Positions 1,619 to 46,959 of a stretch of 48,783 bases of DNA are shown here, in pieces. The notes under the pieces are model-generated. The model saw only the letters and a list, made by a program, of their open reading frames with translations. It did not search any database and was not told where the DNA came from. Position numbers and translations under genes: made by a program. This stretch comes from a bacterium (GTDB taxonomy: Bacteria; Zhuqueibacterota; Zhuqueibacteria; Oceanimicrobiales; Oceanimicrobiaceae): the NCBI GenBank assembly GCA_037446635.1, contig JBBIIG010000033.1:1-48783 (forward strand), given 5' to 3'. How positions within the stretch are numbered: the stretch's first letter is position 1; each line of letters begins with the position of its first letter.

Positions 1619-2899
1619 TCATTTCCGCAGATGCGCCAACGCCTTGGCGCCAATATCTTTGCGATAATATGCTTTGTCAAATGTTATCTTTCCTACAGCC
1701 CAATAGGCTCGTTCGCGCACCTGCAAAAAATCTTCGCCGAAAGCGGTAACGCCCAGCACGCGACCGCCATCGCTGAAGATGCGGCCCTCGCGATCACTGC
1801 GCGTGCCGGCGTGAAAGACGACGATGTCATCTCCTAATTTTTTGTCGAGACCAAAAATGCGCTTACCCTTTTCATAACTTCCGGGATACCCTCCCGACGC
1901 CACCATCACACACATGGCCCATTTTTTATGAACATCAATTTTGTTTTCCAACTTTTTGCCGCGGGCGACACGCAACATGATTTCCACCAGATCGCTTTTA
2001 ACCAGCGGCAGAATCGCCTGCGTCTCCGGGTCGCCAAAGCGGCAGTTGAACTCCACCACTTTCGGCCCGTCGGCGGTGATCATCAGGCCGGCGTACAACA
2101 CCCCGCGATAGGGGCGATTTTCCAGCGCCATGGCTTTAATGGCCGGCGCGAAAATTTCTTTTTGAACCCGCGCCATCATTTTTTTGTCGATAACCGGCGC
2201 CGGCGCATACGCGCCCATGCCGCCAGTGTTGGGGCCTTCATCGTTGTCGAAAATGGCTTTGTGATCCTGCGCCGACGGCAGGAAAGCCAGATTTACGCCG
2301 TCGGTGATCGCCAAAACCGACGCCTCCTCGCCTACCATAAATTCTTCAATTATGACTTTATCGCCAGCGGGGCCAAACACCTTTTCAATCATTATTTTGT
2401 TAATCGCGACTTCAGCCTGTTCTTCGTTTTGACAAATGAACGTGCCCTTGCCGGCCGCCAGTCCGTCCGCTTTGATGACGGTGGGATACTCAACCTGGTT
2501 GAGGTAGCCGCGCGCCTCGTCAAAATTGGTGAACACAATGCAGTCAGCGGTGGGAATTCGATACTTGTCCAACAAATATTTTGTGAACGCTTTGCTGCCT
2601 TCGATCTCCGCGGCCTTTTTGCTGGGGCCGAAAACCGACAACCCCTGCGCCTCAAATTCATCGACGAGGCCGTTGACCAGCGGCTCCTCCGGACCGACGA
2701 CCGTAAGATCGATCCGGTTTTGGCGCGCGAAGTTGATCAGGCCGTCAAAGTCGGACGGTTTCAAAGCAACGCATTCGGCTATCTGGCCGATGCCGGGATT
2801 ACCCGGCGCGCAGAAAATTTTTTCCGTCAGCGGACTTTGCTGGAGTTTCCAAACCAGCGCGTGTTCTCGCCCGCCGCCGCCGATGACTAAAATTCTCAT
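1619..2899 (-). CDS. purD: Phosphoribosylamine--glycine ligase
   Basis: GGGGREHAL, APGNPG, VVGPE, KADGLAAGKG, GPNTGGMGAY, EFNCRFGDPETQ. Confidence 0.98.
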   Translation of the reverse strand: MRILVIGGGGREHALVWKLQQSPLTEKIFCAPGNPGIGQIAECVALKPSDFDGLINFARQNRIDLTVVGPEEPLVNGLVDEFEAQGLSVFGPSKKAAEIEGSKAFTKYLLDKYRIPTADCIVFTNFDEARGYLNQVEYPTVIKADGLAAGKGTFICQNEEQAEVAINKIMIEKVFGPAGDKVIIEEFMVGEEASVLAITDGVNLAFLPSAQDHKAIFDNDEGPNTGGMGAYAPAPVIDKKMMARVQKEIFAPAIKAMALENRPYRGVLYAGLMITADGPKVVEFNCRFGDPETQAILPLVKSDLVEIMLRVARGKKLENKIDVHKKWAMCVMVASGGYPGSYEKGKRIFGLDKKLGDDIVVFHAGTRSDREGRIFSDGGRVLGVTAFGEDFLQVRERAYWAVGKITFDKAYYRKDIGAKALAHLRK

Positions 2900-2937
2900 C
2901 GCATCTGTACCTTGCGTTCCTTTGCCTTTGTTGGTCG

Positions 2938-3306
2938 CTAAAGTTTACCCACGGTTCGCAGCGCAATTAATCCCAATAACAACGCCACCAACATACTAAG
3001 CATGGTGCCGGCGAGAAAATATTCAGCAAAGGCGCGCTCCTTTTGCACGCGTTCATAACGAGCAATGGATTTCATCGTCACCACAAATCCCACCGCCGCA
3101 TACGATTCCAGCCCTACAAGCAAAATGGTTAAGATGCGTTCGAGCGTGCCAATAAAGGCCCCCATTTTATCGGAAGACGCGGTGGCCTCGGGCCGCCACT
3201 TTTTAATCATTTTACGAATCAGCCAATTCGTAGGCCAATGCGCCAGCAAACATGCCAGAAAATAAACGCCGATTTTGATGACCAACTTGAGATCGCATTG
3301 CGGCAT
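2938..3306 (-). CDS. Small membrane protein resembling the C-terminal part of the DUF3307-type partners of SatD
   Basis: Hydrophobic helices; GAFIGTLERIL, KSIARY, AEYFLAGTMLS motifs; GGAGG RBS at 3311-3315. Confidence 0.75.
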   Translation of the reverse strand: MPQCDLKLVIKIGVYFLACLLAHWPTNWLIRKMIKKWRPEATASSDKMGAFIGTLERILTILLVGLESYAAVGFVVTMKSIARYERVQKERAFAEYFLAGTMLSMLVALLLGLIALRTVGKL

Positions 3307-3325
3307 TTTGCCTCCAAATCATTCG

Positions 3326-3430
3326 TTATCAAAATTTTGATAACCAAAATCAGATTATCAACTTTTTGATAACTCAATCTAACTTATCATAATTTTGATA
3401 ACTACATTTAGCTTATCATTATTTTGATAA
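3326..3430. repeat. Four 18-bp palindromic repeats TTATCAnnnTTTTGATAA with an exact 29-bp period (putative operator array)
   Basis: Copies at 3326-3343, 3355-3372, 3384-3401 and 3413-3430; 11-bp spacers ccaaaatcaga, ctcaatctaac, ctacatttagc. Confidence 0.97.
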
Positions 3431-4108
3431 GTCTCCCAGCGCCAGAAAGTTATCTCTGAAAAGCGACCGCAGCGTTGCGGCCAAGTTTTCAAACTCACGA
3501 AAATGTGTTACCTCAACAGTACGGCTGACATTGGAAAGAGGAAGGCCTAACTTTTCCGCGGTTTCCGAAATGCTTTTTCCGGACTCCAGTAAATTCAAAA
3601 CCTCCGTCTGTTTCTGCGTCCAGCGGCTTTTGATGACGGCCAGAGAAAGAAACAACGCATTGATCAGATCATCGCGCAGCGCAGCATCTGTAGAAACGCG
3701 CACCTCCCGCAAAATGGATTTTCCGTAAGCCTTTCGTTCTGCTTTTGCGTCTTCCAAGGCCTGGCGCGCGCGATAAAATGCGGGGCCATCGGCGCCGACC
3801 GCATATACCCCCAGCGAGGTGCTGAGGCCGCCGTAGCCCACCCCAAACACAATTTCCGTCGGCGTTAACCCGATCTGAATTAGGCGGAGGATCTCGTAGC
3901 AGAAATTTGGTTGTTTCAAAATCCCTTGCGCTTCATCGCCAGCGGTGATCAAAAACAGGGAAGCAATTTCGGTTTTGAAATCCTGGTTGACTTTTTTTAA
4001 AACGGCCTCGAACCGCTTTTGAACCGCAGCCCGCTCCCCTGCCGGCAGCGCGCGCGACCCCACAAGGTCGCCGATGATGGTCACGTAATTTCGTTGCGCT
4101 TTCGGCAT
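3419..4108 (-). CDS. SatD-family protein (cyclase/palm-like N-terminal domain plus C-terminal HTH)
   Basis: IIGDLVGSR, ITAGDEAQG, FGVGYG, DGPAFYRAR, WTQKQ...SISETAEKLGLPLSNVSR. The ATG overlaps the uvrB stop (TAATG). Confidence 0.85.
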   Translation of the reverse strand: MPKAQRNYVTIIGDLVGSRALPAGERAAVQKRFEAVLKKVNQDFKTEIASLFLITAGDEAQGILKQPNFCYEILRLIQIGLTPTEIVFGVGYGGLSTSLGVYAVGADGPAFYRARQALEDAKAERKAYGKSILREVRVSTDAALRDDLINALFLSLAVIKSRWTQKQTEVLNLLESGKSISETAEKLGLPLSNVSRTVEVTHFREFENLAATLRSLFRDNFLALGDLSK

Positions 4109-6123
4109 TAACTCCACGCGAATTTCTTTTTGCCGGTGAGGCGATCGATTTCATCGCGAATTTCAGCGGCGCGTTCAAATTCCAATTTGCGGGCGGCGTC
4201 GAGCATCTCTTTTTCGAGACGGTCCAAAATTTCTTCTTTTTCCAGCGGGGAAAGTTTCTTCCAGTTGCGGGTGTCGATCGCCGCGGGCGCCCCCTTGCCA
4301 TACTTCGGGGCTTTGGCATCGGCGACGCGGGTGGCGCTCATCACCTGCTCGTAGGATTTGTAGATGGATTTTGGGGTGATGCCGTGCGCCGCGTTGTATT
4401 CCGCCTGCAGCCGTCGGCGGCGATTGGTTTCGTCGATGGTGCGCTGCATCGAGTCGGTGATGTGATCCGCATAAAAAATAACTTTGCCGGCAATGTTGCG
4501 CGCCGCGCGCCCGGCGATCTGCATCAGCGAGCGTTCGGAGCGCAAGAAGCCCTCTTTATCGGCGTCGAGCACTGCGACCAGCGATACCTCCGGCAGGTCC
4601 AGTCCTTCCCGCAATAAATTCACTCCCACCAGCACGTCGAATTCCGCGAGGCGCAAATCGCGCAAAATTTCCACGCGGTTGAGGGCGTCGATTTCCGAGT
4701 GCAGATAGCGCACGCGGATCTCCATGCCGGCGAGATAGTCAGTCAGATCTTCGGCCATGCGTTTGGTGAGCGTGGTGACCAGCACGCGCTCTCCGCGTTT
4801 CACGCACTCGCGGACCTCGGCAATCAAATCATCAATTTGATGTTTGATGGGTTTTACCACGATTTGTGGGTCCATCAAGCCGGTTGGGCGAATGATCTGC
4901 TCGACCACGACGCCTTTGCTTTTTTGCAACTCGAAGTCGGCCGGCGTCGCCGAGACGTAAATCATCTGGTTCATCATCCCTTCAAATTCGGCGAAGGTCA
5001 GCGGACGGTTGTCCAGCGCCGAGGGCAGCCGGAAACCGTGCTCCACCAGCGTCTCTTTGCGGGCGCGGTCACCGTGATACATGCCGTTGATCTGCGGAAT
5101 GGTGGCGTGCGATTCATCGATGATGGTCAAAAAATCTTTCGGAAAATAATCAATCAAAGTGTAGGGCCGCTGGCCTGGGGCGCGCCCGGAAAGGTGGCGC
5201 GAGTAATTTTCGATGCCCGTGCAGTATCCCAATTCTTGCAGCATTTCGAGATCATACTTGGTGCGCATTTCTAAACGCTGCGCTTCCAACAACTTGTTTT
5301 GCGAACGAAACCACGCCAACCGCTCTTCCAACTCCTCGCGAATGGCAATGATGGCGCGTTCCACTTTGTGATAGGGCGTCACATAATGCTTGGCGGGATA
5401 AATGGCCGCCGTCTCCTGCGACGACAAGATTTCGCCGGTCACGGTGTTGACGAGACTGATCTGCTCGATCTCATCGCCGAACATTTCGATGCGCAGCGCC
5501 TCCTGCTCGTACGCCGGGAAAATTTCGACGACATCGCCGCGCACGCGGAAGGTGCCGCGCTTGAACTCGAAATCGTTGCGGGTGTAGTAGCTATCCACGA
5601 GTTGGGATAAAATGCGATCGCGCGCGATGACCTGGCCGCGTTTCAAAATCAGCAGCTCGTGTTTATAATCTTCCGGATCGCCCAAACCGTAAATGCATGA
5701 CACCGAGGCCACGATGATCACGTCGTCGCGGGACAGCAGCGAACTGGTAGCTTTCAACCGCAGGCGGTCGATTTCGTCGTTGATGGAAGTGTCTTTCTCG
5801 ATGTAGGTGTCGGAGCTGGGGACGTAGGCCTCGGGCTGATAGTAATCGTAATAACTGATAAAATATTCAACGGCGTTTTTGGGAAAAAAACTTTTGAACT
5901 CGCCATAGAGCTGCGCCGCCAGCGTCTTATTGTGAGAAATCACCAGTGTGGGTTTGCCCACATTGGCGATGACGTTGGCCATGGTGAAGGTTTTGCCGCT
6001 GCCGGTGACGCCCAGCAACACTTGATGCTTTTGGCCACTCAAAAGCCCATTGGTGAGCTCCGCAATCGCCCGCGGCTGATCGCCCGTAGGCTTGAAATCT
6101 GAAACCAATTGGAAATGCGCCAT
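4108..6123 (-). CDS. uvrB: Excinuclease ABC subunit B
   Basis: [41 protein letters not shown]-terminal UVR domain ([11 protein letters not shown]). Confidence 0.99.
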
Positions 6124-6153
6124 TTTCTCTTTAGTCCATTAAATTCGCAGCGA

Positions 6154-6182
6154 AATATACGGAGCGTGCGCCAGAATGTCAA
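6154..6182 (-). promoter_or_regulatory. Sigma-70 promoter of uvrB
   Basis: TTGACA-17 bp-TATATT on the minus strand. Confidence 0.75.
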
Positions 6183-6382
6183 GTGGCTTACCGCCTAGCC
6201 CCGAATTTTTATCTATTTGTACAACTGATAAATGATGAATGTAATGGAGTTCAGGAGTGCAATTGCTGAAGTGATGGAGTTTTGGAGTAATGCCTCAATG
6301 GATACTATTCACCATTCACTTTTGAGCTTCCCATTGCACGTCTGCCGTCTGCCATTTGCCGTTTAACGTTCTCAAAAAGCCC

Positions 6383-6411
6383 TTGCATCTTAAGTGAATA
6401 AAAATTATATT
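6383..6411 (+). promoter_or_regulatory. Sigma-70 promoter of the PPIase gene
   Basis: TTGCAT-17 bp-TATATT. Confidence 0.6.
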
Positions 6412-6453
6412 GCCAGCGCTTAAAAACAAAATCTTGAGGAGATACAAAAAGTT

Positions 6454-11104: not shown

Positions 11105-11614
11105 TCACGCCCTCACTCGCCCAAACGCTTCAATGTGCCAGGAATTCTTCATGGGTGTTTCCCATTTTCCGGCGCGCATCAGCCCCACCGTCGCGACGGT
11201 ATTGTCAAACACAATGGTGTCCTCGTTGAGCGCTGCGGATTCGACCAAGCGCTTGAACTCGCTGCGGTCCACGCATCGAATCTCGTGATTGGAATCGCGG
11301 AAAAAAACTTTGGCGTGGGCGCCCACAAGATCGATGTTCAACTTTCTTCCCAACTCAGCAAGGTGCCGCACCAGGCTGTCGATGGAACAGCCGGAGGCGC
11401 CCATCATTTGCTCGTCCACCGCGATGAAAACAAACTGCTGGAAGTGCAACTCCCAAGCGGCCTTTAGCTCGCGCTTGTGAGCCGTCCACTGTTCGATGAA
11501 CGAATTCATGCTTGCAGTCAGCAAGTTAGCCTCCGCTTCGCTCAAAGCCCGCTCGCAGCCATAAATCCACAGCCGCGCGGTATTCGGCATCTGGGTGAAT
11601 TTCACAACGCTCAT
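11105..11614 (-). CDS. Conserved hypothetical protein (WTAH / SGCSID family)
   Basis: ARLWIY, WTAH, ASGCSIDS, VFDNTV, SWH motifs recalled from an FCB-group uncharacterised family. Confidence 0.8.
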   Translation of the reverse strand: MSVVKFTQMPNTARLWIYGCERALSEAEANLLTASMNSFIEQWTAHKRELKAAWELHFQQFVFIAVDEQMMGASGCSIDSLVRHLAELGRKLNIDLVGAHAKVFFRDSNHEIRCVDRSEFKRLVESAALNEDTIVFDNTVATVGLMRAGKWETPMKNSWHIEAFGRVRA

Positions 11615-29000: not shown

Positions 29001-29471
29001 ATGACTGAAAAAGACCGTTTAGAGTGGGTCATCGATCAACATTACAAAACCATTGATCGCCACTACAACCAGCGTATCAAAACCAAAAACTGGTGCCTGA
29101 CCATCTGGCTTGCCATCGTGACGCTCATCGCCTCCGGGAAGCTGCTGGCGTTCAATGCGCAGGGATTGATCCTCAGCTTGCTGCCCATCGTGCTTTTTTG
29201 GGTGGTGGAAGCGATGCAGGCCGGTCACATGAAAATCATGGAGCTGCGGGTAGCGGAATTGGAGAAATTGTGGACGGGAAATGCCTCAAAAATCAAAAGT
29301 CCGAGCGATCTGCTCTTTTACGGCAGCCATCAATATCAGTCCTCGAAAGTCAAATTCAACGTCTTCATCTTTGCGCTCTTCAAAATGGAGACGGTGTTTG
29401 CGTTTTACCTGCTTTTAGCGGTGATGAATTTTGTGGTGGGCATCATTTTTATGTTCACCCAGCCGGTCTAA
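29001..29471 (+). CDS. Hypothetical three-TM membrane protein
   Basis: 156-aa ORF; KTKNWCLTIW followed by TM helices; promoter-like boxes immediately upstream. Confidence 0.75.
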   Translation: MTEKDRLEWVIDQHYKTIDRHYNQRIKTKNWCLTIWLAIVTLIASGKLLAFNAQGLILSLLPIVLFWVVEAMQAGHMKIMELRVAELEKLWTGNASKIKSPSDLLFYGSHQYQSSKVKFNVFIFALFKMETVFAFYLLLAVMNFVVGIIFMFTQPV

Positions 29472-46137: not shown

Positions 46138-46725
46138 TTGAAAACACGCTGCGAGTGGGCGGGTTCGGATCCGCTCTATTTACAATACCACGATGACGAA
46201 TGGGGCGTGCCCGTTCACGACGACCGCCATCTCTTCGAAATGCTGATCCTCGAAGGCGCGCAGGCGGGATTGAGCTGGATCACCATTCTGCGCAAACGCG
46301 AAAATTATCGCAAAGCCTTCAGCAACTTTGACGCCCGTAAAATCGCCAGATATAATGATAAAAAAATCGCCGCATTGTTGTTCAACGAAGGCATCGTGCG
46401 CAATCGGTTGAAAATCAACGCAACCCTGGAGAACGCCCGCGCTTTTCTCGCGGTGCAAAAAGAGTTTGGCAGCTTTGACGCCTACATCTGGCAATTTGTA
46501 GATGGCCGCCCCAAACAGAACGTCTGGAAATCGCTCAAGGAAATTCCGGCGCAAACCCGCGAGTCCGAAGCCATGAGCAAAGACCTGCTGAAACGAGGCT
46601 TCCGTTTCGTCGGGCCGACGATTTGCTATGCCTTCATGCAGGCCGTGGGCATGGTGAACGATCACGTGGTGGGATGCTTTCGCTACAAAACGATCGCTAG
46701 GTATTATGTGGTGGATTTCCAATAG
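46138..46725 (+). CDS. tag: DNA-3-methyladenine glycosylase I
   Basis: RCEW, YHDDEWGVP, LEGAQAGLSW, IVRNRLKI, FVGPTICYAFMQAVGMVNDH. Confidence 0.97.
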   Translation: MKTRCEWAGSDPLYLQYHDDEWGVPVHDDRHLFEMLILEGAQAGLSWITILRKRENYRKAFSNFDARKIARYNDKKIAALLFNEGIVRNRLKINATLENARAFLAVQKEFGSFDAYIWQFVDGRPKQNVWKSLKEIPAQTRESEAMSKDLLKRGFRFVGPTICYAFMQAVGMVNDHVVGCFRYKTIARYYVVDFQ

Positions 46726-46914
46726 AGCAACATTGTTTTCACCACAAAAAACACCTTGACTGGCAGCTTCTTGAAAAACTATTTTTTCAATTTGTTTCGG
46801 GATTCGTTTGTCGTTACGCTTTATTTTAAGTAAGGTATTTGGGGGTTCATTTGAATTGGGCGTCCATTTAAAATCATGCTGAATGAATGGACACATGGCC
46901 AAGCCGTCTTTAAA

Positions 46915-46948
46915 AACCCTGACAGGGTTCCGGAACCCCGTCAGGGTT
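46915..46948. repeat. AACCCTGACAGGGTT-type REP-like palindrome
   Basis: aaccctgacagggttccggaaccccgtcagggtt. Confidence 0.75.
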
Positions 46949-46959
46949 GGCAAATCTAC

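Follow-up and report, generated by a model that had tools for sequence, protein, structure and literature searches.

SatD, a phased palindrome array and a small membrane protein as a putative regulator–operator–partner unit and probable toxin–antidote pair

Between uvrB and purD in a 48,783-nucleotide bacterial contig (GenBank assembly GCA_037446635.1, contig JBBIIG010000033.1; "the window" denotes this whole stretch), a satD gene, a palindrome array and a gene for a 122-aa membrane protein appear to form a regulator–operator–partner unit, a reading that sequence comparison supports well, and the two proteins probably constitute a toxin–antidote pair. The layout, the array and its 28–30-bp phasing, its position upstream of the partner gene, its covariation with SatD and the one-sided decay of the two genes are observations. 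We propose that array-bound SatD represses the partner gene, and that a nucleotide made by the SatD palm domain restrains a likely toxic partner; we assign this whole explanation a probability of about 0.5.

Layout, array and inheritance of the module

All three parts were confirmed on the minus strand, between uvrB (4108..6123, Pfam UvrB domains) and purD (1619..2899, Pfam GARS domains). An earlier note on this DNA had described a 229-aa ORF coupled to uvrB, and the stop codon of uvrB indeed overlaps the ATG of satD (3419..4108) in the sequence TAATG. A sigma70-like sequence 5′ of uvrB (TTGACA-17-TATATT, 6154..6182, minus strand; 11 of 12 matches in a pattern scan) is likely to serve as the promoter of uvrB-satD. 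The family call was equally sound: SatD scored 120.2 bits against Pfam PF16264 (cut-off, 29; E = 1.2e-34) and is a clear member. The membrane gene (2938..3306) has its own GGAGG ribosome-binding site, found as described at 3311..3315 on the minus strand, 4 nt 5′ of the ATG, and purD lies 38 bp 3′ of it. The 112-bp gap between satD and the membrane gene has a GC content of 25%, compared with 49–55% in the flanking genes. The periodic array that had been placed in this gap (3326..3430, unstranded) was recovered as four perfect TTATCA-N6-TGATAA palindromes (3326-3343, 3355-3372, 3384-3401 and 3413-3430) with a period of 29 bp, although the fourth reaches 12 nt into satD, across its last codons and stop. 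The window context around the module consists of housekeeping genes. A 7-bp tandem repeat (TTCGCAA-like, 5.3 copies) occupies 1538-1574 in the purD/epimerase intergenic region, and three window ORFs (29001-29471, plus strand; 46180-46953 and 11105-11614, minus strand) had no Pfam match at E ≤ 1e-5.

The 4.64-Mb genome has no further exact copy of this palindrome. Sites with one mismatch number nine, each on its own, and nowhere else do two sites (≤2 mismatches) come within 70 bp of each other; a wider SatD regulon was rejected on these grounds. For the family-wide comparison, 30 loci from relatives and the best 80 of 387 genome-collection matches, less 10 duplicates, gave 100 loci; two regions were scanned per locus, and an array was called when a palindrome pair lay 28–30 bp apart. 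Arrays were present at 67 of the 100 loci and in 4 of 281 upstream regions taken from those loci as controls. Among 113 spacings in this set, 72 were exactly 29 bp and 96 were 28–30 bp. The half-site varies by lineage and the phase is nearly constant, being 28 bp in a streptococcus-like genus and 29 bp even in two archaeal loci (L102 and L107), which makes sigma70 geometry an unlikely source of the period. Eight sigma70-like matches were counted in 2850-6450, of which four, two per strand, fall within the array (window 3305-3422) and are a product of the repeat sequence itself.

Across the family the array is nearly always upstream of the membrane gene. Where satD and its partner are coupled (n = 61 in the 100-locus set), it precedes satD in 35 loci, follows it in 3 and is missing in 23; the 3 exceptions belong to one genus and have the first repeat inside the 3′ end of satD. 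Where the genes are separated by a gap (n = 33), the array lies between them in 23 loci, upstream in 3, in both places in 1 and in neither in 6. Held-out loci drawn from the best 80 of 367 metagenome matches followed the same rule, by 17:0 for coupled genes (n = 24) and 7:1 for gapped genes (n = 10). In ffh-type streptococcus-like loci the array fills the ffh-satD gap, which we take to be the place where the small satC ORF is annotated in S. mutans. In the streptococcus-like loci L241-L256, the palindrome spacer upstream of satD is often TATAAT, with sites 28 bp apart.

SatD was detected in 31 of 61 genomes (the source genome and 60 relatives) and in 61 of 401 genomes drawn from a single phylum; it also occurs in archaea. 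Among 20 genomes of the same family, the uvrB/purD site holds the module or a remnant in 10, is empty in 3 and was not examined in 7. The module or a remnant is also found there in a genome of another family (G022), and several loci are cut by contig ends. Intact orthologs at this site carry two to four copies of the identical palindrome. In G005, G011 and G020 uvrB adjoins purD without the module; G019 retains 21 satD codons; and G008 has an intact satD, a broken partner and no array, with a PycTM-like gene occupying the space. Whether the module is a fixed core part of the operon in relatives, a question raised earlier, thus has a divided answer: it is old and inherited at the site, but has been lost in some relatives. 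Its long inheritance there also speaks against a defence island or a recent insertion. In other lineages the pair stands alone or lies behind different housekeeping genes, presumably rtcB, ffh and topA. Because these neighbors differ by lineage, the module is not tied to DNA repair, and the general repair link that had been read from uvrB was dropped as lineage-specific. The module is ancient and dispensable and has moved on long time scales; insertion next to uvrB is particular to one lineage.

No copy was present in the phage collections INPHARED or IMG/VR, and nine plasmid-collection records matched. On an Agrobacterium plasmid (L113), satD lies amid annotated toxin–antitoxin genes (HEPN-nucleotidyltransferase and HipA); it is a single case. 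A second SatD lineage in the same bacterial family (L012, L013, L018, L029 and L030) has a different, TATAAC-type site and the helix sequence QADxNK, and its neighbors are, we assume, rtcB and an NAD-dependent ligase; G004 and G008 carry both lineages.

DNA recognition and palm domain of SatD

The C-terminal helix-turn-helix (HTH) suggested in the earlier note was corroborated at residues 163-203 (3500..3622, minus strand), where weak Pfam HTH matches (residues 164-199), PDB sequence matches, the structural model and covariation with the sites agree; sequence searches of the PDB with SatD returned HTH matches only. Covariation with the array marks PLSNVSRTV (residues 190-198; 3515-3541, minus strand) as the predicted recognition helix. 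The 67 arrays were reduced to 55 with an unambiguous center and then to 25 representatives under 50% palm identity. Among 1,576 column-base pairs, the top-scoring SatD residues were 192, 164, 191 and 196. Q191 pairs with A at −9 (8/8) and K, R, P or L191 with T (13/15); Q192 pairs with C at −8 (11/12) and S or A192 with T (10/11); R or K196 pairs with C at −5 (10/13) and E, D or Q196 with G (10/10). The pairings make chemical sense. When the set was cut more strictly, to 15 representatives, covariation was weaker and an unrelated column came first.

The rules, fixed beforehand on the first set, were then applied to held-out loci. The best 80 of 367 metagenome matches yielded 77 complete loci, 53 of them non-redundant and 45 not near-identical to the first set; 35 of the 45 had arrays and 25 had an unambiguous center. 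Residues 191, 192 and 196 predicted the site base in 25/25, 20/23 and 19/24 cases, respectively, and in 12/12, 9/10 and 8/11 cases for the most distant held-out proteins, distance being ranked by alignment score and not by exact identity. L191, S192 and R196 of the window SatD predict T, T and C, which are the bases in its own site. Because three recognition-helix residues predict held-out sites, SatD very likely binds the array through its HTH, and the proposal that the array holds SatD's own sites gains from both its recurrence at 67 of the 100 loci (30 loci from relatives and the best 80 of 387 matches) and its covariation with the helix.

An AlphaFold model of SatD, built on a 35-sequence alignment (pLDDT, 92.9), consists of a palm domain (residues 6-142; 3683..4093, minus strand), a helical linker and the HTH. 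Its structural matches included GTP cyclohydrolase III (Z = 12.8), GGDEF (12.4), guanylyl cyclase (12.0) and Cmr2 (10.7), the best palm superposition (Z = 12.8) having an rmsd of 2.5 Å over 114 residues; sequence identity to palm enzymes was 9–19%. Foldseek matched the model to Rv2242 (9f80, E = 6.1e-5), 3onq (E = 1.8e-4) and OptS (9pd0, E = 2.9e-4). SatD is thus predicted to have a palm fold of the GGDEF/cyclase/Cas10/mCpol kind, as anticipated in the note; the match ranks are tied within about 1–2 Z units, and the product of SatD cannot be assigned from them. The two acidic motifs pointed out earlier contain D14 (4067-4069, minus strand), at the end of strand 1 of the model, and D58 (3935-3937, minus strand), in a hairpin. 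Both are conserved in 80/80 aligned SatD proteins, as are S18, R26, Q30, G57, E59, Q61, D107, G108 and R115, and we infer that D14 and D58 are equivalent to the two metal-ligand positions of palm enzymes. The hairpin motif is AGDEA in the window and T-x-G-D-E-F-Q across the family. In a divergent subfamily (L123, L125 and L127) with long partners, RGDSWQ or RGDTWQ replaces TxGDEFQ, and D14 and D58 are kept.

Family searches place the protein outside the named palm groups. SatD has neither a GG[DE][DE]F motif nor a Pfam GGDEF match at E ≤ 1, and its palm begins at residue 6-8, with no Pfam match to PucR-type HTH or sensor domains at E ≤ 1. For mCpol there was no Pfam or PADLOC match, and the Atlas values of 0.78-0.79 are a lead only.

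The membrane partner and signs of restraint

The note had expected a DUF3307-type neighbor. The homology holds: the 122-aa protein aligns to the C-terminal half of partners of about 250 aa that RefSeq and Pfam label DUF3307, and so corresponds to the C-terminal domain alone of the usual SatE/DUF3307-labelled partner. The DUF3307 domain itself (PF11750) had no match at E ≤ 1 in the 122-aa protein; it is N-terminal in 3/3 long partners tested, and the N-terminal half varies or is absent across the family. Within the C-terminal domain, G49, G53, E56, R57, K79, R83, G100 and S104 are invariant in 54/54 members, and E95 and Y96 nearly so. The signature GxxIGxLER...KSxxR...EYxLxGTxxS found beside satD is present in the window protein. 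No common Pfam family was found among the 54 members, and Atlas returned only unnamed clusters. The partner model is all-helical (pLDDT, 93.5), and by the positive-inside rule its conserved residues would face the cytoplasm. Its best fold match (Z = 8.7) is in the range of common helical bundles and was not considered clear, and a match to CdsA (Z = 7.8) was given no weight.

A partner lies beside 94 of the 100 SatD genes in the set of 30 loci from relatives plus the best 80 of 387 matches; the other six comprise three loci truncated at contig ends, two that have decayed and one with a flank of just 612 bp. Gene order is reversed (partner, then satD) in one subfamily (L217, L228 and L230), which lacks R115. 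In G008 (L032:3923-4465) and G003 (L017:1696-1998) the native partner has decayed and its place between satD and purD is taken by a PycTM-like gene (PADLOC E = 2.9e-26, slightly short of the Pfam cut-off). This gene is intact in G008, next to an intact satD, and in G003 it is, by eye, a remnant; an effector swap or a chance insertion could account for its presence.

Genetic evidence comes from S. pyogenes, in which, according to PMC11323703, satD is present in 178/249 genomes, is essential in 9/9 Tn-seq datasets and is the sole accessory gene in the top essentiality range. Its sole operon mate is non-essential in 9/9 datasets, and trmFO next to it has a score of 0.13, which makes a polar effect improbable (PMC11323703). 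The mate lies between satD and trmFO, the place of the partner in many streptococcus-like loci; by this synteny it would be the membrane partner, the supplement of PMC11323703 naming no product. The streptococcus-like genus in our collection is taken, from gene order, to be Streptococcus. Repression and catalysis cannot be told apart by essentiality alone, which is also what simple repression of a membrane gene, toxic only on overproduction, would give.

Gene decay in the streptococcus-like genus is one-sided. Of 201 genomes searched, 69 contain satD and 68 the partner domain. Of 72 loci, 57 have both genes intact; SatD is intact with a broken partner in 6 and with no partner in 3, both genes are broken in 3, and partner fragments without satD occur in 3, whereas an intact partner with a damaged satD was seen in none. 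The 9:0 ratio of partner-alone to SatD-alone decay corresponds to about seven independent events (p = 0.016); 5 of 12 partners scored as broken still have an open C-terminal frame, and the frameshifts may be assembly errors.

Among 255 distinct SatD proteins, both D14 and D58 are kept in 207/207 that have an intact downstream partner. Three partner-less SatD proteins forming one clade (support, 97 in a quick tree) carry D14N, D14N and D14K together with R115Q; their HTH is 93–97% identical to that of a partnered relative and their palm 70–79%, and the loss of D14 counts as one event. Of 11 SatD proteins without a downstream partner, 3 have it upstream, and the other 8 represent about three events: loss of D14, loss of E59 and R115 (L238), and near-intactness in four near-identical gut loci without a neighboring partner, which keep D14 and D58. 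R115 was weakened as a marker of partner loss because three loci first scored as partner-less have an upstream partner. R115 is replaced in some partnered subfamilies. Converse cases also occur. G030 (93% complete) and G031 (96%) have a partner without a detected SatD, and otherwise invariant partner residues are changed in them. In G541 (L310) satD is frameshifted, and a second partner frame has an ATG and the whole conserved domain. In G060 the partner is intact and SatD stops after the palm domain, which argues against a need for repression there and fits a catalytic antidote. Together, the Tn-seq results, the one-sided decay and the retention of D14 and D58 favor what the note had offered as a secondary idea, an autoregulated toxin–antitoxin-like module.

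Proposed mechanism, alternatives and known systems

In the mechanism we propose, SatD dimers would occupy the phased sites through their HTH and repress the partner gene from the array, and the palm active site would make a nucleotide product that keeps residual partner inactive. Upon loss or depletion of SatD or its product, the partner would be both derepressed and unblocked, and growth would stop. In the window, satD would be translated on the uvrB message, which would explain why the array has shifted between the genes while still controlling the partner. The parts of this proposal differ in strength: repression by SatD bound to the array is likely, harm from an unrestrained partner is fairly likely, and the idea that the antidote is a palm-made nucleotide, and not repression alone, is tentative, at slightly less than even odds. 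A bolder extension, which we consider doubtful, is a DNA-templated signal synthase: SatD would become an active oligomer only when assembled on its intact operator array, and would there make the nucleotide that silences the partner, a new kind of membrane toxin. This reading combines the dimeric or higher-oligomeric state in which palm enzymes work with a 29-bp phase that is kept from bacteria to archaea while the site drifts. If it were true, loss, cleavage or occupation of the host site, or a phage sponge that removes the signal, would free the toxin, and the module would guard its own locus in many phyla, S. pyogenes included.

The strongest competitor, though distinctly less probable than our proposal, is that SatD is a one-component regulator that represses the partner through the array, its palm only sensing a nucleotide or metal-nucleotide ligand; the partner would be a small transporter or stress protein of use to the cell, and losing satD would be lethal only through overproduction of that protein. 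This accounts for the array, the recognition code, the position rule and the Tn-seq result, and it is in keeping with the palm-plus-HTH layout of CdaR/PucR-type regulators (Rv2242 9f80, E = 6.1e-5), with long vertical retention in housekeeping operons and with the lack of a clear defence context. However, a sensor domain usually needs less than both metal-binding aspartates, and both predicted ones are kept in all 207 partnered SatD proteins. The module is also patchy, with the partner decaying first, and the partner was dispensable in all 9 Tn-seq conditions reported in PMC11323703.

An unlikely alternative is a contact antitoxin, in which SatD binds the partner or adds a nucleotide to it (for example at Y96 or K79) and represses its own operon in a type II-like manner. 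The decay asymmetry, the loss of D14 after the partner is gone, and a partner model with little soluble surface for a diffusible ligand would suit it, but the structural neighbors of the palm are small-molecule cyclases and polymerases, not protein modifiers.

We regard as very unlikely the infection-activated second-messenger defence of CBASS/Pycsar logic that the note had favored, in which a SatD signal turns the membrane effector on. In its favor are the layout of palm synthase plus membrane gene, the PycTM-like gene that replaced a broken partner behind the intact satD of G008, and PADLOC matches (E ≤ 1e-8) in 11 of 128 flanking proteins, a count that includes several generic domains and has no background rate. 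The genetics run in the opposite direction, since an activating synthase should be dispensable, yet satD is essential and its mate is not (PMC11323703); moreover, no PADLOC system model matches satD or the partner, the phage collections hold no copies, and the window context is housekeeping. That the array is instead a structured RNA element, a terminator or another regulator's site is highly improbable, because, although palindromes can fold in RNA and this array lies inside a transcript, its sequence tracks the SatD recognition helix in held-out loci, its period of 29 is kept in the archaeal loci and its four exact copies are the genome's only ones.

No mechanism for the SatD–partner pair was found in the searchable literature, subscription papers and bioRxiv supplements being outside the search, and none is given in the portions of PMC10326533, PMC12005413, PMC10210942 and PMC5066943 that were available. 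The searchable literature likewise yielded no satD-antitoxin, SatD-cyclase-phage or SatD-GGDEF proposal; an apparent satD match in bioRxiv 2025.12.17.694813 proved to be satDEF, which has nothing to do with this gene. Restraint of a toxic partner by SatD would give a widespread pair, so far without a described mechanism in that literature, the status of a new type of toxin–antidote system. It would also account for a puzzle in the literature, why S. pyogenes has one accessory gene, and only one, that is essential (PMC11323703). If the active site is the antidote, new synthase and membrane effector families would enter inhibitory nucleotide signalling, so far known from Panoptes-type systems, and would join it to sequence-specific autoregulation. 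The three-residue code and the fixed 29-bp phase offer natural orthogonal regulator–operator pairs.

Among known systems, the streptococcal sat operon (SatD, PF16264; SatE/DUF3307, PF11750) is the closest relative, its acid-tolerance label reportedly stemming from work in S. mutans. SatD is of the same family, the partner shares homology with the C-terminal half of the DUF3307-labelled protein, and in the streptococcus-like genus this pair is found behind ffh or next to gid; unlike in the streptococcal operon, the window partner has no DUF3307 domain and the array sits between the genes. CdaR/PucR-type regulators such as Rv2242 and BAD_0249 also have a palm-like domain followed by helices and an HTH. 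They carry an N-terminal sensor domain and a degenerate palm, whereas SatD lacks an extra sensor domain, retains the acidic residues and is paired with an obligate membrane protein. GGDEF diguanylate cyclases, class III cyclases, the Cas10 palm and GTP cyclohydrolase III share the predicted fold (Z = 10–12.8), from which SatD departs with its AGDEA motif and 9–19% identity. For CBASS and Pycsar, no system-specific PADLOC match was obtained, the only matches being those of the SatD HTH region to Csa3/CARF models. AbiE and HEPN-MNT types are autoregulated toxin–antitoxin modules in which, as is proposed here, the antidote gene comes first and its product likely binds inverted repeats before the toxic gene. 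The SatD pair differs from them in its folds, its membrane partner and its up to four sites at a 29-bp phase. An antidote that is accessory yet essential, as reported for S. pyogenes satD (PMC11323703), would be a further likeness to toxin–antitoxin modules.

Panoptes, in which a synthase restrains a toxic effector, is described in PMC12657218 and PMC12657230; the available parts of both papers make no mention of SatD. Its synthase OptS is alike in its palm fold and in aspartates at similar places (OptS D6/D57, SatD D14/D58), in its two-gene arrangement with a membrane protein and in a restraint logic that matches the genetic asymmetry seen here. In contrast to Panoptes (mCpol OptS with a 2TM-beta or CARF-TM effector), the SatD module has a sequence-specific HTH with a phased array and resides in housekeeping operons, and its all-helical 122-aa partner has no beta-barrel or CARF ligand domain and no Pfam or PADLOC match to the 2TM-beta or CARF-TM families. 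Judged by defining features, the module falls outside Panoptes, CBASS, Pycsar, GGDEF and CdaR; by analogy, it is likely to work like Panoptes combined with an autorepressing toxin–antitoxin pair.
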